A DNA stretch of 64,000 nt, taken from NCBI GenBank assembly GCA_964566055.1, contig CAZMHI010000004.1, positions 20,053 to 84,052 of the forward strand. Direction: 5' to 3'. Origin of the DNA: an uncultured Rhodospirillaceae bacterium. Its GTDB lineage: Bacteria; Pseudomonadota; Alphaproteobacteria; Rhodospirillales; UBA2165. The notes beneath the pieces are model-generated. The model made no database searches. It saw only the letters and a list, made by a program, of their open reading frames with translations, and was not told the origin of the DNA. Shown here one piece after another: positions 8,365 to 61,040 of this stretch; position 1 is the stretch's first letter; every line of letters starts with the position of its first letter. The translations under genes and the position numbers were made by a program.

Positions 8365-8380
8365 GTAACCAACTGCTTGC

Positions 8381-8403: not shown

Positions 8404-8429
8404 TGCGGGTGGTTAATTTGGAGGGATCG

Positions 8430-11101: not shown

Positions 11102-11114
11102 TATCCCAGCTAAA

Positions 11115-11152: not shown

Positions 11153-11184
11153 CAAGATTTAAAGTAAATAGGAATTACGGCGTC

Positions 11185-12447: not shown

Positions 12448-12461
12448 TTGGAGGGCCTGTT

Positions 12462-13545: not shown

Positions 13546-14192
13546 CACACCCTCTTGTCGTCGCTGTTACCGGTGCCACCGGCGTGATTTACGGCGTTGA
13601 ATTGCTTAAAGTTCTGAAAGAACTTGGCGAGGAAACCCATCTGATTTTAAGTGAATCAGCCGGCCGCAATTTGAAAATCGAGACTGAATATAATCTCGAT
13701 GATGTGCGCGCTTTGGCTGATGTTGTCTACAGCAACAAGGACATTGGTGCCGCGGTCGCCAGTGGATCTTTCCTGACCCGGGGTATGGTGGTCGTGCCCT
13801 GCACAATCAAAAGCCTTTCGGCGATTGCCAATTCCTACAATGACAATCTCGTTGCCCGGGCAGCCGATGTGACTTTGAAGGAGAAGCGCCGCTTGGTGCT
13901 GATGGTAAGGGAAACACCCTTGCACAAAGGCCATCTCGATTTGATGTCCCGTAGCGCTGATTTGGGGGCGACGATCCTGCCGCCGATGCCGTCCTTTTAT
14001 CACGGACCGCAAACCATCCAGGACATTATTAACCAAAGTATCGGTAAGGTGCTGGATCAGTTCAGCATCGAGCATAGTCTTTTCCGCCGCTGGAAAGGCG
14101 ATGAGCGGGTGACCGATCGGGAAGTTAAAACGCCTAGCAAAGATAGAGTAGAAGAGCTGGAATCCCGCTTCGGTGAAATCAAGCGTATGTAG
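13542..14192 (+). CDS. ubiX: UbiX-family flavin prenyltransferase (prFMN synthase)
   Basis: 216 aa. VVAVTGATGVIYGVELLKVL...MVVVPCTIKSLSAIANSYNDNLVARAADVTLKEKRRLVLMVRETPL is a classic UbiX/Pad1 sequence. Confidence 0.9.
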   Translation: MTHPLVVAVTGATGVIYGVELLKVLKELGEETHLILSESAGRNLKIETEYNLDDVRALADVVYSNKDIGAAVASGSFLTRGMVVVPCTIKSLSAIANSYNDNLVARAADVTLKEKRRLVLMVRETPLHKGHLDLMSRSADLGATILPPMPSFYHGPQTIQDIINQSIGKVLDQFSIEHSLFRRWKGDERVTDREVKTPSKDRVEELESRFGEIKRM

Positions 14193-16526: not shown

Positions 16527-17008
16527 TGCGCTGCTCCCTTGAGTTGACCGGCAGCTTGAACGGCCGAGGCGATAATTTTTTCATAGCCGGTACAGCGGCA
16601 GATGTTGCCTGAAATACCTTCACGAATCTCGGCTTTGCCCGCCTCGGGATTGCTTTTAAGGATGGAACTGACGGTCAGGATCATACCGGACGAACAAAAA
16701 CCGCATTGAATGCCGCCGGTATCAACGAAGGATTGTTGCACAACGTCCAAACCTTCGGGTGTGGCCAGTCCCTCGATGGTGGTTATCTCAGCACCTTCGC
16801 AGAGGGCAGCGATAGTTAAACAGCCCCGTACCGGTTCACCATTGATCAAAACCGTGCAGGTGCCGCAGACGCCCTGATCGCAGCCCCGTTTGGCACCGGT
16901 TAAATTAAGTCTTTCGCGCAGCACAGTCAGTAGAGTTTCCTGAGCCGGCGCCGTGACGGTTTCAATCTCGCCATTAATATTGAGATCGTAAGTTAAAGTA
17001 TCACTCAT
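16523..17008 (-). CDS. (2Fe-2S)-binding small subunit of the Mo hydroxylase (set 1)
   Basis: 161 aa with both cluster motifs: CDQGVCGTCTV...C and QCGFCSSGM...CRCTGY. Confidence 0.9.
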   Translation of the reverse strand: MSDTLTYDLNINGEIETVTAPAQETLLTVLRERLNLTGAKRGCDQGVCGTCTVLINGEPVRGCLTIAALCEGAEITTIEGLATPEGLDVVQQSFVDTGGIQCGFCSSGMILTVSSILKSNPEAGKAEIREGISGNICRCTGYEKIIASAVQAAGQLKGAAQ

Positions 17009-24611: not shown

Positions 24612-26936
24612 ATGGGAATGAAACCATCTCCCTTTGGGACCCAAATACCTTATGAGGAAAAAGAACTTAAAGTCGTCGGCACCAACCCGGAAGCTCGGCC
24701 GGATGCTGTCGACAAAGTAACTGGCAAGGCGCGCTACGCCGCCGATATCAACGTGCCAGGGCAATTAATTGGTAAGGTACTGAGAAGCCCGCACGCGCAT
24801 GCTGTCATCAAGTCCATCGATACTTCGGAAGCTGAAAAGCTAAAAGGCGTCAAGGCGGTAATATGCCGTGATGATTTACCGGATATGCCGGTCATGCACG
24901 CGGCAGCCGGTGAGATTATGGTTAATTTCCGTGATGTCACCCGTGCCATAATGGCGCGTGAGAAAGCTTTGTTTGATGGTCATCCCGTGGCTGCTGTGGC
25001 TGCCACCAGTGAATCTGTCGCCAAGGCGGCCCTCAAGCTGATTAAAGTAGAGTATGAAGTGCTGCCCCATGTTATTGATGTGGTTGATGCCATGAAACCG
25101 GATGCGCCACTTCTTAATGAAGAACAATTTACCAAAGGTGTTGAACCGGCGCCCGATAAGCCCTCCAACATCGCTGCACGAATGACCAGCGTACTGGGTG
25201 ACGTTGAAGAAGGATTTGGACAGGCTGATCTGGTCGTCGAACGCGAATTTAATACCAAGGCCGCTCATCAAGGCTATATCGAGCCCCATGCCAGTCTGGC
25301 CATTTATACCGAGGGCGGAAACGCCGAGGTTTGGACCAGTACTCAGGGTCATTTCCTGATCCGCGCCCAGACCGCTAAGATTCTGGAAATGGATGTCTCC
25401 CGCGTTAAGGTAACACCGGCGGAACTCGGTGGCGGTTTCGGCGGTAAAAACATGATTTATCTGGAGCCGCTGGCCATCGTTTTGTCTAAGAAATCGGGAC
25501 GACCGGTGAAAATGGTGATGACGCGGGACGAGGTGTTCCGCGCTTCGGGTCCGACCTCAGGCACAAACATTATCATTAAGATCGGTGTCACCAAGGACGG
25601 CAGGATAACGGCCGCTCAGGCGATTTTAAATTATCAATCGGGTTGTTTCCCGGGTTCTTCGCTGCCGCTCTGCACGCCGACCGCCTTCACCCGCTATGAT
25701 ATCGCCAACGTCCTGGTGATCGGCAATGACGTTGTCTGTAACCGGCCGAAAGTTACAGCCTACCGGGCGCCAGGAGCCCCGATGATCGCCTTTGGCGTTG
25801 AAACGGTGATGGATGAAATTGCTGAAGAGCTGGATATTGATCGTCTCGAAATCCGGCTTATGAATGCCGCCAAAGAAGGCACCCAGACCCATTTCGGGCC
25901 AAAACTGGGACCGATCGGCTTTATTGAAACGCTGGAAGCGGCAAAAGCTCATGACCATCTGAAGGAGAAGCTCGGACCCAATCAGGGCCGCGGTATTGCC
26001 ACCGGTTTCTGGAACACGCTGGGTATGGAAACGTCAGCAACTCTCAACGTCAACCAGGACGGCACAGCCTCCCTGATTTATGGTACGGTTGATGTGGCGG
26101 GCGGTATGCGCGCTGCCTATTCACAGATTGTTGCTGAAGAATTAGGTATTCCGTTTGAGAAAGTGCGGGCGATCCAGAGCGATACCACGTCTTTGGGTTT
26201 CAACTTTACGACAGCCGGCAGCCGGGGCACGGCGGCGGGCGGAATGGCGGCGGTTAAAGCCAGCCGCGATGCCATCACCCGCATGTGCGAGGTGGCTGCC
26301 CGTATCTGGGAAGTGGAGCCGGACCAAGTCGTTTGGGAAAACGGTCATGCCCGCCCGGCCAGTTCCAATGTCGGCGAGTTTGAGCCCTTGTCGCTGGCCG
26401 AGATCGCCATGAAAGCAGGCTTTTTTGGCGGCACCATTGCAGGCCATGCGGAAATTAATGTGACCGGCGGTGGGCCCGGCTTCGGCACTCATCTGGTAGA
26501 CGTCGAAGTTGACCGGGAAACCGGTGCGGTTAAAGTGCTGCGCTATACTATTGTCCAGGATGCCGGCAAGGCCGTGTTCCCGGATTATGTCAAAGCTCAG
26601 TTCCACGGTGCTGCGGTTCAAGGTATCGGCTTGGCTCTGAACGAGGAATATATCTATGACGAAAACGGCGTGATGGCCAATCCGGGATTCTTGGATTACC
26701 GGGTGCCGGTTGCCTCAGACATTCCGCCTATTGAAACCGTGATCGTTGAAGTACCGAATCCGAACCATCCTTACGGCATTAGAGGTGTTGGTGAAGTGCC
26801 GATCATTCCGCCACTTGGGGCGATTTCTAACGCGATTTATGACGCCGTTGGTATTCGGATGCGGGATCATCCGATGTCGCCACCAAAAGTCCTGGCCGCT
26901 CTAGATGAAGCCGAACCGGCGGCAGCGGCGGAGTAA
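24612..26936 (+). CDS. Xanthine-dehydrogenase-family molybdopterin-binding large subunit (set 2)
   Basis: 774 aa. GKARYAADINVPGQLIGKVLRSPHAHA and the GGGFGGK motif. It is tightly spaced with the S and M subunit genes. Confidence 0.9.
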   Translation: MGMKPSPFGTQIPYEEKELKVVGTNPEARPDAVDKVTGKARYAADINVPGQLIGKVLRSPHAHAVIKSIDTSEAEKLKGVKAVICRDDLPDMPVMHAAAGEIMVNFRDVTRAIMAREKALFDGHPVAAVAATSESVAKAALKLIKVEYEVLPHVIDVVDAMKPDAPLLNEEQFTKGVEPAPDKPSNIAARMTSVLGDVEEGFGQADLVVEREFNTKAAHQGYIEPHASLAIYTEGGNAEVWTSTQGHFLIRAQTAKILEMDVSRVKVTPAELGGGFGGKNMIYLEPLAIVLSKKSGRPVKMVMTRDEVFRASGPTSGTNIIIKIGVTKDGRITAAQAILNYQSGCFPGSSLPLCTPTAFTRYDIANVLVIGNDVVCNRPKVTAYRAPGAPMIAFGVETVMDEIAEELDIDRLEIRLMNAAKEGTQTHFGPKLGPIGFIETLEAAKAHDHLKEKLGPNQGRGIATGFWNTLGMETSATLNVNQDGTASLIYGTVDVAGGMRAAYSQIVAEELGIPFEKVRAIQSDTTSLGFNFTTAGSRGTAAGGMAAVKASRDAITRMCEVAARIWEVEPDQVVWENGHARPASSNVGEFEPLSLAEIAMKAGFFGGTIAGHAEINVTGGGPGFGTHLVDVEVDRETGAVKVLRYTIVQDAGKAVFPDYVKAQFHGAAVQGIGLALNEEYIYDENGVMANPGFLDYRVPVASDIPPIETVIVEVPNPNHPYGIRGVGEVPIIPPLGAISNAIYDAVGIRMRDHPMSPPKVLAALDEAEPAAAAE

Positions 26937-26991: not shown

Positions 26992-28017
26992 TTAGGACCA
27001 GACGCCGAAAGTATTGGCGTTACCGGTACCCGCATCAGATCGGTAGCAGGGCACGTAATCCAGCAAATCAAACTTGAGACCTGAGCCTTGAGTTGCGCCC
27101 ATGGCGGCGATCCAGTTTTTAATTTCGGAACTGCCTGACTGATAAGAGTATTCTGGCTCATTGATGATGGCCGCTTCATCACCATCAGCAATGGCTTTAA
27201 GAATGCGGTGATCAAGCTCTTCATCAATGACGAAGTGGCTAAAGCCACCCGAGGCGGCAATGCCGACGCGCTTGTCGCTTTTCCACGACCGGATCGCGTT
27301 GCCGACAGCTTTGCCGAAATTCAAAACCCGTTTGGCGGTAGGCTGGTTAGGCGGGAAGAAGGTGTTGATAAAAATCGGCAGGGTCGCCATGTCTTTGCAT
27401 GCTTCGAAGTCGTTCAATATACGATGATAGAAAAAGCCAAAGGCGTGGCCGATGCCGTTCTCACCCCATTTACCATCTGGCATTTTGCTCGAAACCGAAA
27501 CATCAAACTCATCAACCATCAATGAGGAAACAACATAGTTAGCCAAATCTGGCTCTCCGGCATATTCGAGATCTTGATTTTCCGGCACGTTGGTCCAGGC
27601 GGCAATAGCGATACCGGGTGGCATCGCGTCAAGACGTTCCTGGCTCAATACTTTGTTGAGTACTTTCTCGCCGTTATAAACCGAAAAAGCAGGTGACTGT
27701 TCAGGCAAAAAACATTCCCGCTGGTCGTCCCCGAATATGACCAGAACATCCAGATCGGCAGCGCGAATTTTATCGCCCAACTGATCAAGCACTTTCTGAC
27801 TGGCCTGATGGCGCTCTTCGCGGACTTCTGGCGTGTGTTGAGCGGCGAGATTTTCGCCTTTCCGCAATTCCGCCAATTCTTCATAAGTGTAAACGCCACC
27901 CCGGAAGGGGTGAGCCGGATTGTTACGGTCCGCTTCGGCGCGCTGATCCCAATCTTCCGGTTGGGTGCCCAGCATCGGCGTGTGGGAAGAACCCACTCCA
28001 AATACAATTTCAGCCAT
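26992..28017 (-). CDS. Class III extradiol ring-cleavage dioxygenase (LigB family)
   Basis: 341 aa. It begins MAEIVFGVGSSHTPML and contains IAASGGFSHFVIDEE, both typical LigB-family catalytic-subunit features. Confidence 0.7.
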   Translation of the reverse strand: MAEIVFGVGSSHTPMLGTQPEDWDQRAEADRNNPAHPFRGGVYTYEELAELRKGENLAAQHTPEVREERHQASQKVLDQLGDKIRAADLDVLVIFGDDQRECFLPEQSPAFSVYNGEKVLNKVLSQERLDAMPPGIAIAAWTNVPENQDLEYAGEPDLANYVVSSLMVDEFDVSVSSKMPDGKWGENGIGHAFGFFYHRILNDFEACKDMATLPIFINTFFPPNQPTAKRVLNFGKAVGNAIRSWKSDKRVGIAASGGFSHFVIDEELDHRILKAIADGDEAAIINEPEYSYQSGSSEIKNWIAAMGATQGSGLKFDLLDYVPCYRSDAGTGNANTFGVWS

Positions 28018-34598: not shown

Positions 34599-36134
34599 AT
34601 GACTGAAGCAACCAAAACAGCGCCTGTCGATGCCGATATGGCCCTTGGCGCCATGACTGGTGAACGCTATATCAAAAGTCTGCAGGATGACCGCGAAGTC
34701 TTTATCGATGGCGAGCAAGTTAAAGATGTTACCAAGCACCCGGCCTTTACCGGCATCATCAATGAAATGGCCCGTCTCTATGATTTGCAGAACAGCGATG
34801 AATATAAAGACGAAATGACCTTCGTTGATCCTGCGTCGGGGGTACGCTCTTCGGTTTCCTGGATGGTGCCGAAATCAGCCGATGATCTGAAACGCAAACG
34901 CCGCAACAGCCAAATTTGGAACCAGCAAACCTGGGGGCAGCTTGGCCGCTCTCATGATATTCTGGCGCCCTATATTATCGGTGCGCTCAACCGCAAGGAT
35001 CTCTTCAGCGAGGTTAAGCATGACAAATGTGATTTTGGTGAGAATCTCGAGAATTATTATAACTACTGCATGAAGAACGATCTGTTTCTGACCCATGCGC
35101 TGGGTGATCCGCAAGTGGATCGCAGCGCCACGGCGCAGAATGAGAAGCAAAAAACCCAGGAAGATTTGGAAGTCGCTTTGCATGTGGTCGAGGAAACCGC
35201 CGACGGCGTGATTGTGACCGGCGGTAAGCAGCTCTCAACGGCAGCCACCCATGCCAATGAATGCTACATTTCATTATCAGCGACGTTTGCCCGCCGCAAT
35301 GATCCAAACTGCGTGCTGGCCTTCTCCATTCCGCAAAACACACCCGGCCTGAAAGCGCTGGCCCGTGAGCCGAATTCCCGCTGGTTCGGGTCTTGGGGAC
35401 ATCCTTTGCAAAATCTTGATGAGCAGGATTGTATGCTGTTCTTTGATAACGTTTTGGTGCCTTGGGACCGCCTGTTTATGCTCTATGATCCCTCGCCGAT
35501 GGCGAAAATTCTGGGTGCCGGCGGCGGCAGTGTGAACTTTAATTTCTTGGGCTGGGCCAATTTGTGCCGGGCTGAAGAACGCATGAAGCTGATCACGGCG
35601 GTAGCCACCATGGTGGCCGAATCTATCGGTGTTATCCAATACCGCGAAGTTGCCTCCAAGCTTGGTGAGCTGGTGACCTATTGTCACGTTTGGGATCACG
35701 CCATGGAAGGCGTCGAGCATGAAGCGATTGAATCGCCGAGCGGCCAGTGGTCCCTGGGCCATGCCCGTGGCCTGCATATTTGGTTTGCTCAGGTTTCCGG
35801 GCGGATGCTTGAAATCCTGCGCGAGATTTGCGGCGCCGGCATCACCATGCAGCCGAGCGAAAAAGACCTCGCCAATCCGGACATCCGCCAATATCTCGAT
35901 AAATATATGCGCGGTAAGGATTGCGATGTTGAGTATAAGTCACGGCTCTTCCGTCTGGCCCACGATCTGGCAGCCTCTTCCTTCGGCCTGCGCCAGGATA
36001 TTTACGAATACTGGCACGGTGGCGATCCGAGCCGCAACCGCATCAATCTGCTGAACGGCTATGATCAAAGCGAGATCATGGACCGTGTGAAAGACTTGAT
36101 CAGCCGGCCCCTGCCGCATGGTGTTGAGAAGTAG
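34599..36134 (+). CDS. HpaB-family flavin-dependent aromatic monooxygenase, oxygenase component
   Basis: 511 aa. GERYIKSLQDDREVFIDGEQVKDVTKHPAF...ARLYDLQ and THALGDPQVDRS parallel the Thermus HpaB blocks (GAEYIEALK..., THALTNPQVNR). No reductase component is adjacent. Confidence 0.8.
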   Translation: MTEATKTAPVDADMALGAMTGERYIKSLQDDREVFIDGEQVKDVTKHPAFTGIINEMARLYDLQNSDEYKDEMTFVDPASGVRSSVSWMVPKSADDLKRKRRNSQIWNQQTWGQLGRSHDILAPYIIGALNRKDLFSEVKHDKCDFGENLENYYNYCMKNDLFLTHALGDPQVDRSATAQNEKQKTQEDLEVALHVVEETADGVIVTGGKQLSTAATHANECYISLSATFARRNDPNCVLAFSIPQNTPGLKALAREPNSRWFGSWGHPLQNLDEQDCMLFFDNVLVPWDRLFMLYDPSPMAKILGAGGGSVNFNFLGWANLCRAEERMKLITAVATMVAESIGVIQYREVASKLGELVTYCHVWDHAMEGVEHEAIESPSGQWSLGHARGLHIWFAQVSGRMLEILREICGAGITMQPSEKDLANPDIRQYLDKYMRGKDCDVEYKSRLFRLAHDLAASSFGLRQDIYEYWHGGDPSRNRINLLNGYDQSEIMDRVKDLISRPLPHGVEK

Positions 36135-36157
36135 GAACATCTGAAACGGATTAAAGG

Positions 36158-36194
36158 CGCCGGGAGGGTCGAGAGATGCTCCCGGCGTTTTTTT
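36158..36194 (+). terminator. Rho-independent terminator
   Basis: CGCCGGGAG-(12 nt)-CTCCCGGCG, a perfect 9-bp stem followed by TTTTTTT (36188-36194). It lies between convergent genes. Confidence 0.75.
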
Positions 36195-37776
36195 ATTCCC
36201 CGACGGCTTTCGCCATCAAAGCTGCCGTTTCTGCTGGCGCATTATTACCGCACCAAACGACGTAGTGGTCCGGGCGGATCAGGATGTAGCGGCTCTCATA
36301 AGCCTCGCGGGGTCCGGCGAAGGTGTCGCGGATGATACTGAACGGGATATTTTGTGCTTGAGCAGCGGTTTCGAAAGCGCTGGTCACCGAGTCTTCGCCA
36401 TCCAATGACAAAAGCGAAAAGTCATTGCTAAGCTCTTCATAAATATTTTTACCGGACGACATTTCAAGCGGCGCCAGATGGTGTCCGGCCTGAGCTTTAA
36501 AAGTATGCTTGCCATGGGCCGAGCAAACGCCACCTTCTGGGCCATCTATCACGCCCGAGCCTTCGTAGTTGGGCTCATAGCTTAGCATAGTTCCCTTGGC
36601 GCCGGCCTTTCTATCCTCCCAGGCTTTAAGAAAGGCGTCCAAGTCTTTATCCGGATTGTAGGTCGACAGAAATTGATTTTCGCGTTCGATGCCGGTGGCG
36701 ATAAAATCCTCACCGGTTTCTTTGAAAATCGGATGGCGCTCGACGCTGTAGGAGTCGAGCAGGGCCTCGCCGCCCCAACCCTGCAATACGCCAGCAAGCT
36801 TCCAGCCGAGATTGCGCGCATCTTCAAGCCCGTTATTGACGCCAAAGCCGCCATAAGGCGGGTGGGAGTGAGCGGCATCTCCGGCGATGAAAACCCGGCC
36901 GACCTGATAGGTCTCGGCGACGGCGACCCGCAAATCCCAAAATCCGACATGGTCAAACTCGCAAGCGAACTCAAAACCGGCGGCTTTTTGGATCAAGGCT
37001 TTAAAATCATAGTTATCGACAGTAGTATCCATCGGCACCGGGGCATGGAAAAACCAGCCTTCGCCGACATCGATGCGGCCAAAAAACTGCCAATAGCCGT
37101 TCAGTTCCGGGTCCATGGCGCGGTAGGTGCTGCGTTCGGGAAAGCGTTTGAGACCTTCATGCAGCTCTTTCGAACGGAAGACCGCCAGCACCATTTTCTG
37201 ATCAAAGTCGGAGCCTTTGCGTTCAATACCGATGGCATCCCGCACCATCGAATGAGCGCCATCGCAGCCGACCAGATAATCCCCTTCGAGGGTCTGGCTT
37301 TCCTCGCCGTCCTCTATCTTGATGATGACACTGACACCGCTTTCATCCTGCTCTAAGGCCTCGGCTTTCCAGCCGAAATACGTTTCGACCTCTGGCATTT
37401 CTGCCACTTTTTTCTGCAGCACTTCTTCCATGCAATATTGCGGCATCCGTTCATTGGCCTGAAAGAAAAAATCTTTGACCAATTCGCGCTGGGGCGGGGA
37501 ATACCAATACTTGCTCATTAAATTGCCATAGGCGACGATGCCGCCAATCGGGGATTTGGCCGGCATGACCCGGGCAGCGCGCATTTCTTTGATGATACCC
37601 CAGCTATCGAAGTGATCGAGCGTGCGCTGCATCAGATTTTGGCCTTTGGGGATGCGATGGGGCTCGGTGCGGCGCTCGATGATGGCAGATGAAATACCCC
37701 GCAAGCCAAGTTCAATGGCGAGGCCCATTCCGACCGGCCCGCCGCCGACAATCAAAACCTGTTGCCGATAGCTCAT
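36193..37776 (-). CDS. FAD-dependent aromatic-ring hydroxylase (PheA/TfdB/MhpA/PcpB-type group A monooxygenase)
   Basis: 527 aa. It has the dinucleotide fold VLIVGGGPVGMGLAIELGLRG, the motif FIAGDAAHSHPPYGGFGVNNGLEDARNLGWKL and a C-terminal Trx-like extension. Confidence 0.85.
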   Translation of the reverse strand: MSYRQQVLIVGGGPVGMGLAIELGLRGISSAIIERRTEPHRIPKGQNLMQRTLDHFDSWGIIKEMRAARVMPAKSPIGGIVAYGNLMSKYWYSPPQRELVKDFFFQANERMPQYCMEEVLQKKVAEMPEVETYFGWKAEALEQDESGVSVIIKIEDGEESQTLEGDYLVGCDGAHSMVRDAIGIERKGSDFDQKMVLAVFRSKELHEGLKRFPERSTYRAMDPELNGYWQFFGRIDVGEGWFFHAPVPMDTTVDNYDFKALIQKAAGFEFACEFDHVGFWDLRVAVAETYQVGRVFIAGDAAHSHPPYGGFGVNNGLEDARNLGWKLAGVLQGWGGEALLDSYSVERHPIFKETGEDFIATGIERENQFLSTYNPDKDLDAFLKAWEDRKAGAKGTMLSYEPNYEGSGVIDGPEGGVCSAHGKHTFKAQAGHHLAPLEMSSGKNIYEELSNDFSLLSLDGEDSVTSAFETAAQAQNIPFSIIRDTFAGPREAYESRYILIRPDHYVVWCGNNAPAETAALMAKAVGE

Positions 37777-43431: not shown

Positions 43432-44100
43432 CTATTGGGCATCTGCTCCAGCTGTCGGTAGGCCAGCCGCTTTCCATTCAGGCAGGCCTTCGTCCAACCG
43501 GCGGGCGTTGAACCCCTGAGTACGCAGCGCCGCCACGGCTTCAAACGACAGCACGCAATAGGCGCTCCGGCAGTAGGCGACGACTTCTTTGTCTGGATCG
43601 AGATCACCCAGCCGGGTTTCTAAATCATTGAGCGGAATATTGACCGCACCGGCAAGATGCCCTTGGGCAAATTCATCAGGAGGCCGGACGTCCAGCACAG
43701 TGACCATGCCGGCACGCGTGCGTTCGAGAAGCTCATCCCGAGAGACCGGCTCCATATCATCGCGATCATCGAAATAGCCGTGCACAATGCGATCCACCTC
43801 GGCAATGTTGCGTTCCGCCACTATCCTGAGAGTGTTTAATAATTCCAGGACAGAATCATCAGAGAGCCGGTACAGGATGAATTTGCCTTCGCGCCGCGAA
43901 GTTACCAGCCCAGCCCGCCGCAGATGCTGTAAATGCTGTGACGTATTGGCGATTGAGAGATCGATAGTGGAGGCCAAGGCATCAACGCCGCGTTCTCCCT
44001 GAGCTAAATGTTCTAGAATTTCCAATCTATTGGCATGTCCAACGGCGCGGGCGACGGTAGCGAATTCTTCAAACAATGCCTGTTTCGGACCTCTTGACAT
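43432..44100 (-). CDS. ArsR/SmtB-family regulator fused to a rhodanese domain
   Basis: I prefer ATG 44100 (MSRGPKQALFEEF...). The ArsR HTH reads HANRLEILEHLAQGERGVDALAS...ANTSQHLQHLRRAGLV. The C-terminal rhodanese carries the loop VVAYCRSAYC. Confidence 0.8.
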   Translation of the reverse strand: MSRGPKQALFEEFATVARAVGHANRLEILEHLAQGERGVDALASTIDLSIANTSQHLQHLRRAGLVTSRREGKFILYRLSDDSVLELLNTLRIVAERNIAEVDRIVHGYFDDRDDMEPVSRDELLERTRAGMVTVLDVRPPDEFAQGHLAGAVNIPLNDLETRLGDLDPDKEVVAYCRSAYCVLSFEAVAALRTQGFNARRLDEGLPEWKAAGLPTAGADAQ

Positions 44101-44182
44101 TTTGAACTCCATTAGATATAACATTCAATTGAATGATTGAATAATAAAGATAAAGGGCGCCCAGCGCAAGGAAAAAATACAA

Positions 44183-45028: not shown

Positions 45029-45699
45029 AAATGTCACGAATTATCCCTCGTCTGATTCTGCTTACCGGTATTGTGGCAGCGATTATCTGGGTTGGCCGGA
45101 ATTTTGATCAGCTGGATTCTGCAGCGCTTGATGTCTGGCTTTCGGAGTTTGGGATTTGGGCGCCGCTCGCTTTTATAGTTCTTTATATAATTGCCACAGT
45201 TATTTTTATGCCGGGGTCACTGTTTGCGCTCGCCGCCGGGGCTTTGTTCGGCCCAATTTGGGGCTCCCTGTTAAGTTTATTGGGCGCGACCTTGGGGGCC
45301 GGCATGGCGTTTGTGATCGCCCGCTACTTTGCCGGTGATTGGGTCGCCCGAAAAACCGGCGGTGGGTTAAAAAAATTTATCGAGGGCGTTGAGGCTGAAA
45401 ACTGGCGCTTCGTTGCCTTTGTGCGCCTGGTGCCGTTATTCCCGTTTAATTTAACCAATTATGCGCTGGGCCTTACGCGCATAAAATTAGTGCCTTATGT
45501 TATCACCTCTTTCATTTGCATGGCACCCGGTGGCGTGGCCTACACTTGGCTAGGTCATGCAGGACGCGAAGCCTTTGACGGCAATATTGCTGCTATTCAA
45601 TGGGGCATATTGGCTCTGGCCTTACTCGCCGCAATTGCCTTTTTGCCGCGCCTCGTGCGCCGCCTGAAAGAAAATGGCGCGCCTCAACTTTCTGCTTAG
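45025..45699 (+). CDS. TVP38/TMEM64 (DedA/VTT-domain) family membrane protein
   Basis: 224 aa and multi-TM. The motifs FMPGSLFALAAGALFG and VRLVPLFPFNLTNYALGLT are typical of the VTT domain. It overlaps the upstream gene via ATGA. Confidence 0.75.
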   Translation: MKMSRIIPRLILLTGIVAAIIWVGRNFDQLDSAALDVWLSEFGIWAPLAFIVLYIIATVIFMPGSLFALAAGALFGPIWGSLLSLLGATLGAGMAFVIARYFAGDWVARKTGGGLKKFIEGVEAENWRFVAFVRLVPLFPFNLTNYALGLTRIKLVPYVITSFICMAPGGVAYTWLGHAGREAFDGNIAAIQWGILALALLAAIAFLPRLVRRLKENGAPQLSA

Positions 45700-47990
45700 T
45701 TCTGCTTTGTTGCTTGTATCACCTGCCAGATAGACTCGGCTGTTGCAGGAGTATCGATATGATGGATACCTAACGGTGAGAGCGCATCAACCAAAGCATT
45801 GACGATGGTGGCAACGGCGCAGCCGGTGCCGATCTCACCCGCACCCTTGACGCCGAGCGGATTAACTTCGGTCGAGCTTGGATTGTCATAAGTTTCAATA
45901 AAGCACATATCTTTGGCTTTGGGCATGGCGTAATCCATGTAGGAGCCGGATAACAGTTGGCCGGTCTCAGCATCGTAGGCGATATTTTCGGATAAGACCT
46001 GCCCCAGCGCCTGGACAATGCCGCCTTTGACCTGGCCTTCAACTTGAGTAGGGTTAATCGACTTGCCGACATCGGTAACGGCAATATAGCGTTTAATCTC
46101 AACGCCACCGGTATCCGGGTCAACCTCAAGCTCGCAGATATGACAACCCGAAGGGAAGGTCGGCGCGCTGGTTTTGTGAGTGCCGACAACCGTCAGGTCG
46201 TTTTCTTTGGCCAATTCGGCGAAGGTGATGGCGCGATCCGTACCGGCGACAGTAAAGGTTTGATCAGCAAAATCGATATCGGCTTCAGCTGCTTCCAAAT
46301 GTTCGGCGGCGAGCTCTTTGCCTTTCTCAATGATCATACCGGTGGTTACAAATACAGCTGAGCCGCCTATACCTGATACTTTTGAGCCACCTGCACCAAA
46401 GCCTTTTTCCAACGTGCTGGTGTCACCTTCGACGATCTGTACTTGATCTGGGCTCATCCCCAATTTCTCACAGATGATTTGGGTGTACATGGTGGCGTGG
46501 CCCTGGCCTTGATCCGTGGAGCCTGCGTAGAGCAGGGCGTTGCCATCCGCATCAATGCCGAGTTTGGCAAATTCCTGGCCGGGTGGCGCTGAGCTCTCTA
46601 CATTGTTGCCCATGCCGAGGCCGAGCATTTTTCCCCGCTCTTGAGCTTCCTTGCGCCGCGCCGCGAAGCCGTCGTATTCAGCTTTAGTCAATGCCACTTC
46701 TTGGTTTTTCGGGAAATGTCCGGAATCATAAGGCGGGCCAAGGGCCGGTTTAAACGGCATCATGTCTTCGGCAATGAGATTGCGGCGGCGAAGTTCTGCC
46801 GGGTCAATGTCCAATTCCCGGGCCGCGATATCAATGATGCGCTCGATGACGTAGCCTGCATCGGGCCGGCCCGAGCCGCGATAGGGCGACATTGGGTTTG
46901 AATTCGAAAACACTGCTGTGGCGTGATAGTGAATGGCCGGTGTTTTATAGGCGCCGGCGAGGCCGCTGGTCGACATAATGATCGGGAAGGTCGACGTGGT
47001 TGAATAATAAGCGCCCGTGTTGGCTATCGAATGAACTCTAAGCGCCAGAAAATTAAAATTGTCATCCAAGGCGAGCTCTGCCTCGATGATTTTATCACGG
47101 GCATGATTGTCGCTGACAAAGGCTTCCGAGCGGTCGCTGATCCATTTTACCGGCCGCCCATGTTTTTGTGAGGCCCAAACGGCGAGCGGCGTTTCGGAAT
47201 ACATTGAGCCCTTCATACCGAAGCTGCCACCGATATCGCCGGTAACCACCCGGAAATTCTCTTCTGGCTGATTGAAAAATTTATTGGCGAGAATCCCACG
47301 AGAACCAAAGGCAGCTTGAGTTGGCAAATGAACGGTGGTGAATTTGGTTTCAGGATTATAGTCGGCGACGACTCCCCTTGTTTCAATTGTGCTTGCGGTT
47401 AAGCGGTTGATGCGAATTTGATGTTTGACGATATGAGTCGCTGCAGCAAAGGCTTGGTCGGTGGCCTCGATATCCCCCTGATGATACTCGTAGGCAATAT
47501 TATTAGGACAGTCATCCCGGACCAGCGGCGCACCATCAGATATTGCTTGGGCCGGGCCAACCACAGCTGGCAGTATTTTATACTCAACATTTATTAACTC
47601 GGCGGCATCCTGGGCCTGTGTCTTGCTTTCAGCGACAATGAAGGCGACGCCATCGCCGACATAGCGGACCCGCTCGGCGGCCAGGGGATAATGTTTGGCT
47701 GGATAAATTTTCTCCGGATCAAAGGTCGGCAGGGTAGCCAAATTATGCGGCATTTCGCCGAGCCCAGCAGCCAGATAATCAGCGCCGGTGAACACATCGA
47801 CCACACCCGGTGCAGCTTTGGCAGTGCCAACATCAATTGTTACTATCTCAGCATGCGCGTGCGGTGAGCGCAGCATGTGGCCATAGAGCTGATTGGGCAG
47901 GATATTATCATCAATAAACTGGCCATTACCCTTGAGTAAGCGCGGGTCTTCGGTCCGGACTACGGGTGAATTGGGGCTGAATTTATTCAT
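45696..47990 (-). CDS. Xanthine-dehydrogenase-family molybdopterin-binding large subunit (CoxL-like, orphan: no adjacent FeS or FAD subunit genes)
   Basis: 764 aa. VVRTEDPRLLKGNGQFIDD...LYGHMLRSPHAHAEI, a GGSFG motif, and YRGSGRP in place of the CODH active-site loop. Confidence 0.85.
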   Translation of the reverse strand: MNKFSPNSPVVRTEDPRLLKGNGQFIDDNILPNQLYGHMLRSPHAHAEIVTIDVGTAKAAPGVVDVFTGADYLAAGLGEMPHNLATLPTFDPEKIYPAKHYPLAAERVRYVGDGVAFIVAESKTQAQDAAELINVEYKILPAVVGPAQAISDGAPLVRDDCPNNIAYEYHQGDIEATDQAFAAATHIVKHQIRINRLTASTIETRGVVADYNPETKFTTVHLPTQAAFGSRGILANKFFNQPEENFRVVTGDIGGSFGMKGSMYSETPLAVWASQKHGRPVKWISDRSEAFVSDNHARDKIIEAELALDDNFNFLALRVHSIANTGAYYSTTSTFPIIMSTSGLAGAYKTPAIHYHATAVFSNSNPMSPYRGSGRPDAGYVIERIIDIAARELDIDPAELRRRNLIAEDMMPFKPALGPPYDSGHFPKNQEVALTKAEYDGFAARRKEAQERGKMLGLGMGNNVESSAPPGQEFAKLGIDADGNALLYAGSTDQGQGHATMYTQIICEKLGMSPDQVQIVEGDTSTLEKGFGAGGSKVSGIGGSAVFVTTGMIIEKGKELAAEHLEAAEADIDFADQTFTVAGTDRAITFAELAKENDLTVVGTHKTSAPTFPSGCHICELEVDPDTGGVEIKRYIAVTDVGKSINPTQVEGQVKGGIVQALGQVLSENIAYDAETGQLLSGSYMDYAMPKAKDMCFIETYDNPSSTEVNPLGVKGAGEIGTGCAVATIVNALVDALSPLGIHHIDTPATAESIWQVIQATKQN

Positions 47991-49656: not shown

Positions 49657-50163
49657 TTATTTCGGCATGTTTTGTTTTAGGGGCAGAATATGCCATTCAA
49701 CTTCGGGTTCGATCCCGGCATCATCCAGTAAGGCGCCAATCGGGCAACGATCAATTGAAAGCTGTTTAAGACGTTCGACCTTGGTATCAGGCTCGTCGGT
49801 TTCGATGCTGATGATCATTTTTGCTCCAACAAAACGCAAAATCTTACTATCAGCTTCACGTCCTTCGCCCATACCAGAATCAATGATCGCATCAATTTTA
49901 ATTTCACCATACTTAAGCCGCATCGCTTCAGCGACCTTGACGACTTGCACGGTTTGACAGGAGGCGAGGGCAGCGGAGAAATGGAGGAGGGGAGATGCCC
50001 CGTCATCCTTGCCGCCGCGTTCCGGCGGCTCATCAATGATGATGGCATGATTGTCCATTTGAATATCACATCTGACAGTGCCAGCTGCTGTAACGGAGCG
50101 CGCCGTCCTGGTGCGCGGTTCTGGTTTTTCTTTGAGTTTGATGGCGCTCATTCTGTTCCCCAA
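49657..50163 (-). CDS. OsmC/Ohr-family protein
   Basis: 168 aa. DEPPERGGKDDGASPLLHFSAALASCQ and the C-terminal ...SIDRCPIGALL are OsmC-like. Confidence 0.7.
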   Translation of the reverse strand: MGNRMSAIKLKEKPEPRTRTARSVTAAGTVRCDIQMDNHAIIIDEPPERGGKDDGASPLLHFSAALASCQTVQVVKVAEAMRLKYGEIKIDAIIDSGMGEGREADSKILRFVGAKMIISIETDEPDTKVERLKQLSIDRCPIGALLDDAGIEPEVEWHILPLKQNMPK

Positions 50164-50252
50164 TAATTTTAGTGTGCGTGAAGCCCGGCATTTTAGGTTT
50201 CATCACCCCGATAGCAAACGTTTACAATTATCATTGACTCATTTTTTAAAAA

Positions 50253-50271
50253 TAGCTAAGTTACTTAGCTA
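50253..50271. promoter_or_regulatory. Perfect 19-bp palindrome, candidate MarR operator
   Basis: TAGCTAAGT-T-ACTTAGCTA. It ends 16 bp upstream of the UbiD-2 start (50288). A MarR gene closes the same operon. Confidence 0.45.
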
Positions 50272-50287
50272 AATAAGGGAGGGTAGA

Positions 50288-51658
50288 ATGGCGAAGAACC
50301 AACTTGATCCCGATCTCAGGGGCTATCTGGAAACCAATAAGGATATTCTGACGGTTATTGAAAAGCCGGTGAGCATCAATGATATCGGTGCGCTGTCGGC
50401 GCAAAGCGACGGTCCAATCCTGTTTGAGAATATAAAGGAACATCCGGGCTTTAGATTGTGCGATATGCTGGTGCGTCACCGCTGGTCGCAATGCCGGGCA
50501 TTAGGTGTTGAAGAAAAGGACTATCTGCCGACATTAGCACAGCGCTTGCGCAAACCGCCGCGGGGTTTAGTTGATGTTGAGACCGGCCCGGTTAAAGAAG
50601 TGATCTGGACTGGCAAAGAGGCAGACTGGCTCAAATTGCCGATTCCCATTCATTCTGAGCAGGAAGACAAGCCCTATGTCACGGCGATGAATATCGTCAA
50701 AGACCCAGAGACCAGCTTTTATAATTCATCCCATGCCGGCACTCAGGCGGTCGGCCCTCAAAAAGGGTTGGTGAGTTTTATCACGCCCCATACCCACGCC
50801 ATTATCCAAAAATATTTGGCCCGGGGTGAAAAAGAAATGCCGATTGCGGTGGTGTTTGGCATCCCGCCCGCATTTGAAATTATGGGTAATTTTTCCGGCC
50901 TTCATATGGATTTGTGGGGTGAGATGGAAATGGTTGGCACGATCATGGATATGGATATTGAAATGGTGCCCTGTGAAACCATTCCGCTGACCGTGCCGGC
51001 TCATGCCGAAATTATCGTGGAGGCGGTGGTCGACCTAGAAAGCCAGACTGATATTGGTGTTGGTGTCTCACCTTCAATGTATTATCTGCCGAAGACTGCG
51101 ACTTTGCCGGATATGCATATTAAGGCGATTACCATGCGGGAAGACCGGCCGATCTATCGCAATCATCTTACGACGCCGGATACAGATCATCAGACCCTGC
51201 CGCGCTTGTGTCACGAAGCCGTGCTTTTTAACCGGCTCACAGAGATTGGTGTCAAAGTCCACGATGTACAGTTCCCAACCTGGGGAGCCGCACTTTCCTG
51301 TATAATCCAGCTTGAGGCGCCTCGGGAAGGCTTTATCAACGACGCGTTATTACAAGCGATGGGATCACCCTGGCTCAACACCAAAATGGTCGTTGCCGTC
51401 AGCCCGGACACCGATATTTCAAATGCGCAAGAAGTTTATCATGCCATAGCGACGCGCTGCGATCCGTCCCGGGACATAATTATTGCTGACAATACGAGGG
51501 GCTCACCGTTCGATCCATCGGGTGAGCCAATCGATGCATTTTGGCGGACGGTCGGCAAGATCGGTATTGATGCCACCGCCAAATCACGGAATTTAGCCGA
51601 TCATGAACGCGCCTGGCCTTTGAATTGGGGCAAGGTCAAACTCGAAGACTATTTATAA
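50288..51658 (+). CDS. UbiD-family (de)carboxylase, second copy
   Basis: 456 aa. It has a UbiD-like N-terminus (DLRGYLETNKDILTVIEKPVSINDIGAL) and UbiD-like overall length. RBS AGGGAGGG. Confidence 0.8.
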   Translation: MAKNQLDPDLRGYLETNKDILTVIEKPVSINDIGALSAQSDGPILFENIKEHPGFRLCDMLVRHRWSQCRALGVEEKDYLPTLAQRLRKPPRGLVDVETGPVKEVIWTGKEADWLKLPIPIHSEQEDKPYVTAMNIVKDPETSFYNSSHAGTQAVGPQKGLVSFITPHTHAIIQKYLARGEKEMPIAVVFGIPPAFEIMGNFSGLHMDLWGEMEMVGTIMDMDIEMVPCETIPLTVPAHAEIIVEAVVDLESQTDIGVGVSPSMYYLPKTATLPDMHIKAITMREDRPIYRNHLTTPDTDHQTLPRLCHEAVLFNRLTEIGVKVHDVQFPTWGAALSCIIQLEAPREGFINDALLQAMGSPWLNTKMVVAVSPDTDISNAQEVYHAIATRCDPSRDIIIADNTRGSPFDPSGEPIDAFWRTVGKIGIDATAKSRNLADHERAWPLNWGKVKLEDYL

Positions 51659-51670
51659 GGAGGAAGTCAT

Positions 51671-52291
51671 ATGGATGCACCAAACCCTAAAATTACCAAA
51701 GAAGAAGAACCGTTTATTCCTTATGTTGAGGAAGAAAACTATCCGGAAAGCCTGCAGCCTCTGCTTGGGCCCTATATTGAGCGGATGGGATTCTTACCCA
51801 ACGCCTTGAAACTATATATGCACCGGCCGGAAATCGCCGGCACGCTTTTTGCGCTCAACAGTAACATTATGCGCGATCCATCTTCGACCCTGGATCAGCA
51901 GCTCAAACGTAAATTGGGCACGGTTGCGAGTAAGATCAACGGGTGCACCTATTGAACAAGCCATGGCTGCGGCGTGCTGCAGAACGATGGTGAAGACGGT
52001 GCCGAAGGCTGGGATTTTGACAACGAAGAACTTTCCGAGTTGTTGACCGATCCGCAGCCCAAGGACGATTTCGAAAAGGCTTGTTTTGACTATGTTGAAG
52101 CGGCTTCTTTCGACCCGGCCAATGTGCCGGACGAGGTGTTGGAAAATCTCAAAAAGCACCTCACGCCCCCGCAAGTGGTTGAACTCGCTTGTGTTGTTGG
52201 CTTCTGGAAGATGTACAATACTATCCACGACAGTTTGAAGATTCCGCTTGAGAAGCATCTTCATGCGGTTTCGGGTTTTGTTGATCTTTAG
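51671..52291 (+). CDS. AhpD-like / carboxymuconolactone decarboxylase-family protein with an in-frame UGA (predicted selenocysteine) in a C-x-x-U motif
   Basis: ORF-track pieces 51671..51955 and 51974..52291 share a frame. Read through TGA (51953-51955) the protein is ...LGTVASKINGCTY-U-TSHGCGVLQ..., 206 aa. This aligns with the LGVYVSHLNNCHYCVEHH motif of the Cys paralogue at 38527-39135. RBS AAGGAGGAA. Confidence 0.7.
51961..51990 (+). other. Candidate SECIS hairpin for the AhpD-like UGA
   Basis: Lower stem CCAU/AUGG (51961-64 / 51987-90). Upper stem CUGCGG/CUGCAG (CUGC:GCAG plus G-U and G-C pairs). Apical loop CGUG. It starts 6 nt after the UGA codon. Confidence 0.35.
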
Positions 52292-52299
52292 AACTTTCA

Positions 52300-52806
52300 A
52301 TGAAACTTAAATCTACCAACCGAGATGAATTGCTGGAAGCGGGTTCAGATGTCCGCTTCCGGCAGCTTGTCTATGATTTGTTTACGATCTCGACGCATAT
52401 GCAAAGCGTGCGCGATCATGTCGCCGAGCGCATCGGCGTTACCGGTCCGCAATACAGTATCCTGTTGGCGATCGCAGAAATGGGAAATGATGTCGGGGTC
52501 AGCGTAAAGCGCGTTGCCGAGCATCTGCATGTTAGCGGCGCCTTTGTCACCGCCGAGACCGGTAAATTGATAAAGACCGGATACTTGAATAAGCAGCAAG
52601 ACCAGGATGACCGGCGCGCTGTGCGCCTGACTTTATCAACAAAAGGTCTTACGGAGATTGAACGCGTGTTGCCCGAGCTTAGAGAGATAAATGACACTTT
52701 CTTTGGCAGCTTGAATAAACCTGAATTTGAAGATTTGTCTACTATCATTGCTGGCATGATCGGAGGCGCCGAGCGTGCAACCGAAAATACAAACTCTGAC
52801 GGGTGA
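52300..52806 (+). CDS. MarR-family transcriptional regulator
   Basis: 168 aa. wHTH region (GVTGPQYSILLAIAEMGNDVGVSVKRVAEHLHVSGAFVTAETGKLIKTGYL...DRRAVRLTLS). It starts 8 nt after the upstream stop. Confidence 0.8.
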   Translation: MKLKSTNRDELLEAGSDVRFRQLVYDLFTISTHMQSVRDHVAERIGVTGPQYSILLAIAEMGNDVGVSVKRVAEHLHVSGAFVTAETGKLIKTGYLNKQQDQDDRRAVRLTLSTKGLTEIERVLPELREINDTFFGSLNKPEFEDLSTIIAGMIGGAERATENTNSDG

Positions 52807-60938: not shown

Positions 60939-61040
60939 GCACCAAAAGGTGCCCAAATTCCCTATTTTGTGATTGGTTACTCCCCCTTTGACCGGCTATA
61001 AGGTTATCCGGAACACTAACTAACCAAAGGAAATCCGGAC

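Follow-up and report, generated by a model that had tools for sequence, protein, structure and literature searches.

A Widespread Gene Unit Pairing a UbiD-Family Protein Predicted to Lack the Canonical Catalytic Network with an AhpD-Like Thiol or Selenol Protein

Introduction

The UbiD family of enzymes, which depend on prenylated flavin mononucleotide (prFMN), has been studied intensely for reversible (de)carboxylation and CO2 fixation, and its mechanism has been described around a conserved Glu-Arg-Glu network. An intact network is needed for efficient catalysis, and its Arg (R173 in Fdc1) is needed for the oxidative maturation of prFMN (Bailey et al., 2018; PMC5818171). In HudA, the main role in acid-base catalysis has been assigned to the matching Glu, and in HmfF, H297 sets the specificity for furans (PMC7976604). 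Here, we describe a relative of these enzymes, UbiD-2, encoded in a stretch of 64,000 nucleotides from an uncultured Rhodospirillaceae bacterium (assembly GCA_964566055.1, contig CAZMHI010000004.1, positions 20,053 to 84,052), the whole of which is referred to as the window. The UbiD-2 gene stands behind a perfect palindrome and is followed by a gene of the CMD/AhpD family with an in-frame TGA codon and by a gene for a MarR-family regulator. An initial annotation had singled out this arrangement, and every sequence feature that it reported was recovered at the same position.

Several relatives of the second gene product have also been described. AhpD-like proteins with a CxxU motif, in which U is selenocysteine (Sec), are a known and abundant family of marine redox selenoproteins (PMC1088965; PMC2398784), and AhpD-like 1 (CxxU) was the fourth most numerous selenoprotein family in the Global Ocean Sampling (GOS) survey (PMC2398784). 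A CxxU selenoprotein as such is not new. No biochemical function is given for AhpD-like 1, a family to which the window protein may belong, in the selenoprotein literature cited here. Among solved structures, the closest relatives are the debrominase Bmp8 for the AhpD-like protein and HmfF for UbiD-2; the background on both draws on the titles of PDB entries and on two papers, one a review (PMC7918430) and the other on HudA (PMC7976604). Literature searches returned no published description of a partnership between UbiD and AhpD-like (CMD) proteins. The components belong to known families, but none of the literature found describes their obligate pairing, an operator dedicated to them or a UbiD clade without the network.

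Conservation of the Unit

Two sets of loci were compared. The genome set comprised 80 loci from species-representative genomes, which were searched with an alignment of the AhpD-like (hereafter CMD-like) protein, and the metagenome set, which served as the reciprocal test, comprised 80 loci from metagenome contigs searched with an alignment of UbiD-2. In 74 of the 80 genome loci, the CMD-like gene is immediately preceded by an ortholog of UbiD-2 with 64-95% identity. Conversely, the CMD-like gene lies directly 3' of UbiD-2 in 68 of the 69 metagenome loci with at least 700 nt of sequence 3' of UbiD-2, to which this count was restricted. The neighbourhood statistics proposed in the initial annotation are therefore strongly positive in both directions. 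The MarR gene comes directly after the CMD-like gene in 66 of those 74 genome loci; in the metagenome set, 59 loci have room for it and 56 of them carry it there. The gaps between UbiD-2 and the CMD-like gene are mostly between -4 and +20 nt.

The carriers of this arrangement include Rhodospirillaceae and other Rhodospirillales, Xanthobacteraceae and other Hyphomicrobiales, Burkholderiales and other Betaproteobacteria, Gammaproteobacteria, Acidobacteriaceae and Bryobacteraceae; cultured carriers are found, for example, in Rhodoplanes, Pseudolabrys and Pseudorhodoplanes. More than 3,000 database proteins belong to the UbiD-2 clade, with 65-72% identity across phyla, and an exhaustive search of representatives of clusters at 50% identity placed the whole family in a single cluster. 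The arrangement is far beyond chance, as gene order is conserved over about 160 independent loci together with an operator motif and a Cys/Sec column (both described below). By gene order and motif conservation, the operator, UbiD-2, the CxxC(U) protein and MarR form a conserved unit, which was probably spread by horizontal transfer. The window copy belongs to a marine metagenomic lineage; its closest genomes are metagenome-assembled genomes (MAGs) of Rhodospirillaceae, and a UbiD-2 protein identical to it was found on 23 contigs from several samples.

The Active Site of UbiD-2

UbiD-2 is matched by the Pfam families UbiD (PF01977, 3e-32) and UbiD_C (PF20696, 5e-22), with a weak match to UbiD_N (PF20695, 7e-4), and aligns with canonical UbiD proteins at an hhalign probability of 100%. 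The closest solved structure is that of HmfF (6h6x/6h6v, E about 2e-38). Active-site residues were assigned from three agreeing alignments: with HmfF by HMMER, with 68 orthologs by MAFFT, and with canonical UbiD proteins by hhalign. The ligands of the metal and of the prFMN phosphate are kept as N146, H168 and E212 (N168, H191 and E233 in Fdc1), which are invariant in the 14-68 orthologs compared; N146 and E212 stand opposite N175 and E241 of Escherichia coli UbiD. At the three positions of the network, G151, I256 and S260 stand opposite R180, E285 and D290 of E. coli UbiD (R173, E277 and E282 in Fdc1). Among orthologs, the G151 column is at least 90% Gly, that of I256 is variable, and that of S260 holds Ser, Gly or Thr. 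As judged from these alignments, UbiD-2 has lost the Glu-Arg-Glu/Asp network, with the Arg and both acidic residues replaced. The view of UbiD-2 as a canonical prFMN decarboxylase, which was implicit in the initial annotation, does not survive this comparison.

The family has residues of its own as well. H301, which is conserved, aligns with His296/297 of HmfF, and three family-specific motifs are invariant: NFSGLHMDxWGE, LPRLCHEA (which contains C308-H309-E310 in a helix spanning residues 303-319) and WGAAxSC. Outside the family the network is largely intact. Among the 82 nearest full-length representatives of 50%-identity clusters, the Arg is kept in 78 and all three residues are kept in 69. 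In the nearest sister clusters, at 38-42% identity, the Arg is kept, and Asp and Ser/Gly already occupy the two acidic positions. No CMD-like gene was found near two of these Arg-keeping sister clusters (P0244 and P0250); a third (P0251) lies on a contig of only 1.6 kb with no neighbours and was left out of the context comparison. The nearest of them, P0244, is 42% identical to UbiD-2, with the Arg kept and the second acid lost, and on its contig (k141_49496; L170:5001-11365 in our locus numbering) it is accompanied by a ThiS-like protein, an aldehyde:ferredoxin oxidoreductase, an Fe-dependent alcohol dehydrogenase (Fe-ADH) and another UbiD, a gene context that differs from that of UbiD-2 and is likewise uncharacterized.

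Many members of the family are named "2,5-furandicarboxylate decarboxylase 1" by the Joint Genome Institute (JGI). Taken at face value, the label would make UbiD-2 an ordinary enzyme of the HmfF type, acting on 2,5-furandicarboxylate, with neighbours that are incidental. HmfF is indeed the closest solved homolog, and its furan-specificity His is matched by H301. However, the similarity is distant (E about 1e-38 over the full length), the loss of the network makes the label doubtful, and the conserved adjacency shows that the neighbours are clearly not incidental. In addition, no hmf-type pathway genes are among the recurrent neighbours, among which no dedicated search for each hmf gene was made. 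The HmfF annotation is thus highly improbable and can be considered essentially excluded.

The supply of prFMN was assessed from the position of UbiX. The only prFMN synthase encoded in the window is a UbiX about 36-37 kb from the unit, as had been pointed out in the initial annotation, where UbiD-2 was described as having no UbiX of its own. This holds for the window as a trait of its lineage and does not extend to the family: 15 of the 80 genome loci and 15-17 of the 80 metagenome loci, or about one fifth of them, have a UbiX ortholog no more than about 2.6 kb from the unit. UbiD-2 itself is accompanied by further UbiD genes in some loci. One locus (L024:4789-7963) holds two divergently oriented UbiD-2 paralogs, and in two others (L017:4708-7961 and L014:6604-12805) a canonical UbiD with Arg and Glu intact adjoins UbiD-2.

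The AhpD-Like Partner

The product of the second gene falls below the cutoffs of the established families: it scores 56.9 bits against a cutoff of 81.8 for TIGR01926 (2e-15), 16.7 against 23 for Pfam CMD, and 31.9 against 175 for NF041238. Its sequence places it in a divergent subfamily of the COG2128/TIGR01926 branch of the AhpD/CMD superfamily. Profile searches gave Bmp8 as the best solved match (E 1.5e-11), with which it shares the motif G-C-x-Y-C-x-S-H and the CxxCxxH spacing. The fold was judged on an AlphaFold2 (AF2) model of a Cys-containing homolog (P0001) that is 77% identical to the window protein, with a mean predicted local distance difference test (pLDDT) score of 93.1. In a Foldseek comparison of this model with the PDB, Bmp8 was again the best match (template modelling (TM) scores of 0.76/0.83), and the top matches, with TM scores of 0.72-0.83, were Bmp8, AhpD and structures titled "peroxidase-related". 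The predicted structure is thus the all-alpha AhpD fold.

Within the subfamily, C92, C95 (U95 in the window) and H98 are invariant in 40 homologs. There are also an extra invariant C100 and C138 and a near-invariant C174, of which C100 and C138 are missing from Bmp8. The exchange of Sec and Cys at the CxxC motif points to a redox-catalytic residue. In an Opitutaceae MAG (JAUSID010000286.1, L063:6444-8594), a 716-amino-acid open reading frame (ORF) joins an HpaB-family flavin monooxygenase in frame to a CMD-like domain, which is a Cys form of the same subfamily with 65% identity to the window selenoprotein.

The CMD-like gene is also found without UbiD-2, around position 8000 of four loci from MAGs of Binataceae or "Deltaproteobacteria" (L015, L018, L030 and L037). 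In L018 and L030 it adjoins genes for a methylamine-dehydrogenase heavy-chain-like protein, a MauD-like thioredoxin and MauE; L015 has at most the heavy-chain-like gene, and L037 has Cupin_7 and EthD genes upstream instead.

The resemblance to Bmp8 raises the possibility that UbiD-2 and the partner are consecutive enzymes. UbiD-2 would then decarboxylate a (hetero)aromatic acid by means of substitute residues, and the partner would act independently on the free substrate or product, either by Bmp8-like reductive dehalogenation with a thiol or selenol, or by reducing a quinone/hydroquinone product prone to autoxidation. A structural study of Bmp8 is said, in its title, to concern a strategy common to Bmp8 and the Sec enzyme iodothyronine deiodinase. 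In addition to the match in sequence, motif and fold, the fusion to an HpaB-family, phenol-type monooxygenase would fit such a role, as would the presence of HpaB-family genes near the unit in 37 of the 160 loci; the HpaB family includes dehalogenating halophenol monooxygenases. Against this, the identity to Bmp8 is only 18-25%, AhpD and the uncharacterized "peroxidase-related" structures score barely below it, the extra invariant cysteines are foreign to Bmp8, and no halogenase, P450 or other bmp-type gene is among the recurrent neighbours. On balance, we regard consecutive action as unlikely, though as a serious competitor.

The same fold supports another explanation, built on the protective role that the initial annotation proposed beside action on the decarboxylation product: the selenoprotein may reduce a hydroperoxide or disulfide and thereby protect the O2-sensitive prFMN, or clear the H2O2 formed in its maturation, with no part in the substrate reaction. 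The fold and the CxxC(U)xxH motif are those of the AhpD/alkylhydroperoxidase superfamily, and the Sec occupies the second position of CxxC, which is that of the attacking Cys133 in Mycobacterium tuberculosis AhpD. Fusion to an O2-activating flavoenzyme of the HpaB type would also suit a guarding role. However, no AhpC or peroxiredoxin (Prx) partner is among the recurrent neighbours, other UbiD enzymes, including UbiD-1 in the window, have no such guard, and a near-universal dedicated partner (98% adjacency) would be unusual for generic protection. A guard against peroxide is therefore improbable in our judgement, and further points on both sides come from the regulator and the flanking genes.

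Selenocysteine in the Partner

More than 1000 full-length Cys homologs of the CMD-like protein are known, with 60-77% identity. In an alignment of 21 sequences (the window protein with 20 homologs), the column of the in-frame TGA is an invariant Cys, the second of C-x-Y-C-T-[AS]-H. Across the 80 genome loci, this codon is TGC in 69, TGT in seven and TGA in four, all four in marine Rhodospirillaceae MAGs; the window also has TGA, and four further TGA loci were found in metagenomes. The TGA-bearing sequences comprise five distinct variants with intact frames. When the window is compared with the four TGA genomes, the ratio of nonsynonymous to synonymous substitutions (dN/dS) comes to 0.03-0.08 in the part preceding the codon and to 0.05-0.06 in the part following it (dS 0.56-1.39). 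A range of 0.04-0.10 was likewise obtained on either side of the codon, with a dS of 0.56-1.28 past it. The low ratio past the UGA indicates that the downstream half is translated.

An upper stem-loop, CUGCGG-CGUG-CUGCAG, begins exactly 11 nt past the UGA and is identical in all five TGA variants, forming part of a candidate Sec insertion sequence (SECIS). This is the spacing of the minimal SECIS of E. coli fdhF, and G/U residues in the apical loop are typical. In a Cys-encoding ortholog (L013), the sequence differs at this position and no equivalent hairpin is present. The folding energy of the hairpin alone is not significant (z = 0.17), and its support comes from position and conservation. 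Rfam gave no match anywhere in the window at gathering thresholds, and relaxed thresholds over the locus gave one spurious miRNA match, so that none of the curated models for a SECIS or a riboswitch fits.

Could the TGA be a nonsense mutation or sequencing error in a decaying gene, and the palindrome a terminator or chance repeat? Public gene calls do break the CMD-like gene into ORFs of 94 and 105 amino acids, the folding energy is as just given, and the promoter scan entered the palindrome as a weak hairpin of terminator type for the minus strand. However, all seven places with sequence past the TGA give the same 94-amino-acid call ending there, and the identical UbiD-2 protein on 23 contigs comes from different samples. 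Moreover, five diverged variants retain the TGA, with unbroken frames and a dN/dS of about 0.05 past the codon, TGA serves elsewhere as a normal stop (as it does for the MarR gene), so the genome is not recoded, and the palindrome motif recurs 5' of UbiD-2 in 115 loci. An artefact is thus extremely improbable and is effectively refuted by the conservation data. On these comparisons, the TGA is a genuine selenocysteine codon, and the C-T-Y-U motif read in the initial annotation is borne out as a Sec codon at the redox-active position by the Cys alignment, the substitution ratios and the hairpin.

Machinery for Sec is represented in the window by SelD (452 bits for NF002098 against a cutoff of 299). 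Translation upstream of its called start reads LSHGGG-stop-GCKVAPSVL, so that an in-frame TGA lies in SHGGG-U-GCKV at what is presumably the position of Cys17 in E. coli SelD. Both the ORF finder and public gene calls start SelD at 61113 and so miss its Sec-containing N-terminus. A tRNA scan of the window did not find tRNA-Sec, and selA and selB were not seen among the window ORFs scanned, which were not all of its ORFs.

Probable Operator, Promoter and Regulator

The 9-1-9 palindrome (TAGCTAAGT-T-ACTTAGCTA) ends 16 nt before the ATG of UbiD-2, with a GGAGG ribosome-binding site between the two. It is unique in the window, where 0.01 matches would be expected from dinucleotide shuffles, and related palindromes also stand 5' of UbiD-2 in distant loci. 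A search for WAAGYNRCTTW, with at most one mismatch and within 160 nt 5' of the start of the UbiD-2 ortholog, found the motif in 115 of 145 loci, compared with an expectation of 0.018 per 172 nt at the rate seen elsewhere in these loci. The motif spans about 21 bp with the consensus ATAGTAAAGT-T-ACTTAACTAA, and its symmetric conservation extends outside the search pattern (T2 98%, A3 90%, A20 100%). The operator-like element proposed in the initial annotation thus proves to be the local form of a conserved motif that is found together with the MarR gene.

Four close but diverged relatives (L009/L150, L013/L090, L012/L091) have TTGAC(T/C) exactly 13 nt 5' of the palindrome, although the sequence of the spacer differs. 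A 17-nt spacer from TTGACT would lead to a -10 element, TAAGTT (50257-50262), within the palindrome. A generic promoter consensus scan made no call here, and this -10 fits the consensus at only three of six positions. The palindrome probably covers the -10 region of the promoter of the unit. As a terminator the palindrome was rejected: it would form a weak hairpin on the minus strand with only three G-C pairs, and no minus-strand gene ends upstream of it.

The regulator is matched by Pfam MarR_2 (PF12802, 6.7e-11) and MarR (PF01047, 2.2e-07). It contains no Cys in the window, and the aligned part is without Cys in 93 of 120 orthologs, making the sensing of a ligand likelier than that of an oxidant. 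An OhrR-type thiol-sensing MarR was rejected as the sensing Cys is missing; the likely inducer of the operon is then a ligand and not an oxidant, which also counts against a guard. MarR most likely binds the 19-21-bp palindrome of its own promoter.

A Possible Mechanism

The reading that we tentatively prefer, and hold with slightly less than even confidence, is that UbiD-2 and its partner make up one functional system, which acts on an aromatic or heteroaromatic acid that is also the ligand of MarR. In this system, MarR would sit on the palindrome over the -10 element of its own promoter until released by the acid, upon which the two tightly coupled upstream genes would be expressed and UbiD-2 and a thiol oxidoreductase made. 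UbiD-2, with residues for binding Mn/K and prFMN apparently kept and without the network for acid-base catalysis and O2-dependent maturation, would take up the substrate where prFMN is bound. The redox or proton chemistry that this site no longer provides would then come from C92 and U95 in the partner, whether by making the cofactor or keeping it in its active redox state, or by reducing a cofactor- or enzyme-bound intermediate or the immediate product. In the marine Rhodospirillaceae, the Sec of the partner would be decoded by means of the hairpin past the UGA. The link to prFMN is drawn from the loci in which UbiX adjoins the unit, and the redox role from the Sec/Cys exchange at the invariant CxxC, the CxxU family and the HpaB fusion. 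The aromatic nature of the substrate is suggested by the catabolic and transport neighbours and by the aromatic-catabolism genes in the window.

A bolder proposal is that UbiD-2 and its CxxC/U partner represent a new kind of prFMN enzyme, in which a dithiol protein (here with a selenol-thiol pair) replaces the network. This could take one of two forms: maturation or cycling of prFMN driven by thiol/disulfide exchange, independent of the route through the Arg and O2, or a reaction of a reductive kind (dehalogenating or reductive decarboxylation, for instance) performed by no known UbiD enzyme. We consider either version doubtful.

Several points weigh against a single functional system. That UbiD-2 binds prFMN is deduced from its conserved ligands, and the physical or functional coupling of the two proteins from gene data. 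Tight operon coupling is equally typical of consecutive enzymes of a pathway, and an in-frame fusion of UbiD-2 to the CMD-like protein was found in none of the 160 loci. On one metagenome contig (PVBE010026255.1, L092:5001-6874), a UbiD-2 that is 86% identical is followed after 38 nt by MarR, with the CMD-like gene absent and the upstream palindrome rearranged (TACTTTACTAA...TTAGTAAAGTA). Judged from this locus, the partner may be dispensable or supplied in trans, and the persistence of UbiD-2 without it favours consecutive enzymes. For the association of a lost Arg with a gained partner, only two outgroup contexts are informative. Furthermore, H149, H301 and C308-H309-E310 could stand in for the lost network without a partner, and the AF2 model of UbiD-2 (pLDDT 76.7) is least confident in the family-specific active-site loops 202-207, 259-270 and 294-303.

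Gene Neighbourhood and Window Context

Outside the closest marine relatives, recurrent neighbours of the unit are a Liv-type ABC transporter, an HpaB-family monooxygenase, an Old-Yellow-Enzyme (OYE), cupins, EthD, DUF2848 and an amidase; a literature search on DUF2848 gave nothing. At least one catabolic gene (DUF2848, HpaB, OYE, EthD, Cupin_7 or amidase) is present in 63 of 90 large loci. These accessory genes were counted by tblastn, as naive ORF calling gives shadow ORFs in loci of high GC content.

In the window, the unit is flanked by OsmC and YaaA, which the initial annotation read as a context of peroxide stress and which would fit the peroxide guard introduced above. Both genes are present as described, and the interpretation does not carry over to other carriers. 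YaaA adjoins the unit in three loci (L009, L012 and L013) and is about 2.3 kb away in L092, and OsmC is found in L012, so that the flanks are confined to the closest marine relatives. Since they lie outside the conserved unit, the argument from a stress context is weak, and this counts against the guard.

The features of the locus and of the rest of the window are listed in Table 1. Between 4206 and 14192, the window holds a cluster resembling a phenylphosphate synthase/carboxylase system, which includes UbiX and only one UbiD-type subunit. Elsewhere, there are three sets of molybdenum hydroxylases (xanthine-dehydrogenase family), a LigB-type extradiol dioxygenase, an HpaB-like monooxygenase and an FAD ring hydroxylase, and the window as a whole looks like an island of aromatic catabolism. 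Directly 3' of SelD lie UbiT and UbiU (62119-63677, plus strand), which belong to O2-independent ubiquinone biosynthesis and suggest a low-oxygen lifestyle. At 43432-44124 on the minus strand, an ArsR/SmtB-type regulator is fused to a rhodanese domain, in Cys form, with a weak match to models of rhodanese-related (seleno)proteins.

Table 1. Features of the unit and of its surroundings, with positions numbered from the first letter of the window.
Feature	Position	Strand	Remarks
XylR-type sigma-54 activator	4206-5993	-	
Phosphoenolpyruvate (PEP)-utilising and PPDK_N proteins	6532-9509		
UbiD-1	9602-11101		Passes the NCBIfam cutoff for "phenylphosphate carboxylase subunit beta"
UPF0261 protein, CBS protein and PAC_bac protein	Listed between UbiD-1 and UbiX		Within 4206-14192
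UbiX flavin prenyltransferase	13542-14192	+	In trans; 252 bits for NCBIfam NF004685 (cutoff 188)
Molybdenum hydroxylase sets, LigB-type dioxygenase, HpaB-like monooxygenase and FAD ring hydroxylase, jointly	14199-17847 (-), 23264-26936 (+), 45696-47990 (-), 26992-28017 (-), 34599-37776		
OsmC	49657-50163	-	Flanks the unit
-35-like hexamer TTGACT	50234-50239	+	13 nt 5' of the palindrome; putative promoter element
Perfect 9-1-9 palindrome	50253-50271	n/a	Probable MarR operator; predicted binding
UbiD-2	50288-51658	+	456 aa; UbiD (prFMN) family, related to HmfF, active site remodelled; Pfam
AhpD/CMD-fold selenoprotein (COG2128/TIGR01926-type, Bmp8-like)	51671-52291	+	206 aa; begins 12 nt past the UbiD-2 stop; C92-T-Y-U95-T-S-H98-G-C100
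In-frame UGA read as selenocysteine	51953-51955	+	Aligned with the invariant Cys of CxxC
SECIS-like hairpin	51960-51991	+	Predicted; lower stem CCAU/AUGG; upper stem-loop at 51967-51982
MarR-family transcription factor	52300-52806	+	168 aa; begins 8 nt past the stop of the CMD-like gene; Cys-free; Pfam
YaaA	52873-53658		Flanks the unit
SelD (selenophosphate synthetase)	61038-62087	+	In trans; own in-frame UGA at 61089-61091; NCBIfam NF002098

Significance

A large and tightly conserved UbiD clade without the network on which the mechanism of the family has been built, and nearly always with a dedicated CxxC/CxxU protein and MarR, makes this unit a candidate source of new prFMN chemistry or of another route to cofactor activation. 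Maturation of prFMN outside the canonical route is not known to have been explained. UbiD-2 also offers a concrete genomic partner, and with it a functional handle, to one branch of the "AhpD-like" selenoproteins. The automatic label "2,5-furandicarboxylate decarboxylase", carried by thousands of such genes, is probably wrong. If the two proteins are only consecutive catabolic enzymes, the unit would still be a useful new operon with a defined operator, though a much less remarkable one.

Comparison with Known Systems

Among described UbiD enzymes, HmfF and the canonical members Fdc1, E. coli UbiD, AroY and HudA have a three-domain architecture in common with UbiD-2, and their Mn/K and prFMN-phosphate ligands recur in it; its conserved H301 aligns with the His for furan specificity in HmfF. 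The genome here encodes a UbiX too, which adjoins the unit in about 20% of orthologous loci. The hudA gene of Pseudomonas aeruginosa likewise has a MarR neighbour, hudR. UbiD-2 differs from the canonical enzymes in that the Arg is replaced by Gly, the Glu by variable residues and the second acid (Glu/Asp) by Ser, Gly or Thr, and in that it carries invariant motifs of its own. It differs from HmfF in lacking both the intact network and hmf genes among its recurrent neighbours. In addition, none of the other UbiD genes examined (UbiD-1 and the sister clusters P0244 and P0250) has a CxxC(U) AhpD-like gene at its 3' side, as UbiD-2 almost always does.

The partner resembles AhpD-like 1 (COG2128, CxxU) and TIGR01926 proteins in its predicted all-helical AhpD/CMD fold, in a CxxU motif with Sec at the second position, in its abundant Cys homologs and in its marine occurrence. 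Unlike these, it scores below the TIGR01926 and Pfam CMD cutoffs, has the extra cysteines C100, C138 and C174, and has a dedicated genomic partner that is unmentioned in the selenoproteome surveys cited here. The tetrabromopyrrole debrominase Bmp8 (PDB 6ohi/6ohj), which remains its best solved match with a shared G-C-x-Y-C-x-S-H motif, offers an analogy of thiol-based chemistry on an aromatic small molecule that is not that of a peroxiredoxin; by this analogy, dehalogenation is a candidate role for the partner, which is set apart from Bmp8 by its low identity, its additional conserved cysteines and a context without bmp biosynthetic genes. With the AhpD/AhpC system of M. tuberculosis, the partner has in common a CxxC motif on the AhpD fold, with Sec at the position of the attacking second Cys (Cys133). 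However, the His spacing is CxxCxxH in the partner and CxxCxxxH in AhpD, and in place of a nearby AhpC or peroxiredoxin there is a partner of the UbiD fold.

The regulator of the unit compares best with ligand-responsive MarR autorepressors from the catabolism of aromatic acids, such as HpaR, HcaR, PcaV and HudR. As in these proteins, there is a winged-helix domain without a sensing Cys, the regulator is encoded in the operon that it probably controls, and an AT-rich pseudo-palindromic operator is predicted to overlap the promoter. In contrast to them, the regulator here is encoded by the last gene of the operon rather than by a divergent gene, and the operator consensus, which is TAGTAAAGT-T-ACTTTACTA-like, is specific to this unit.

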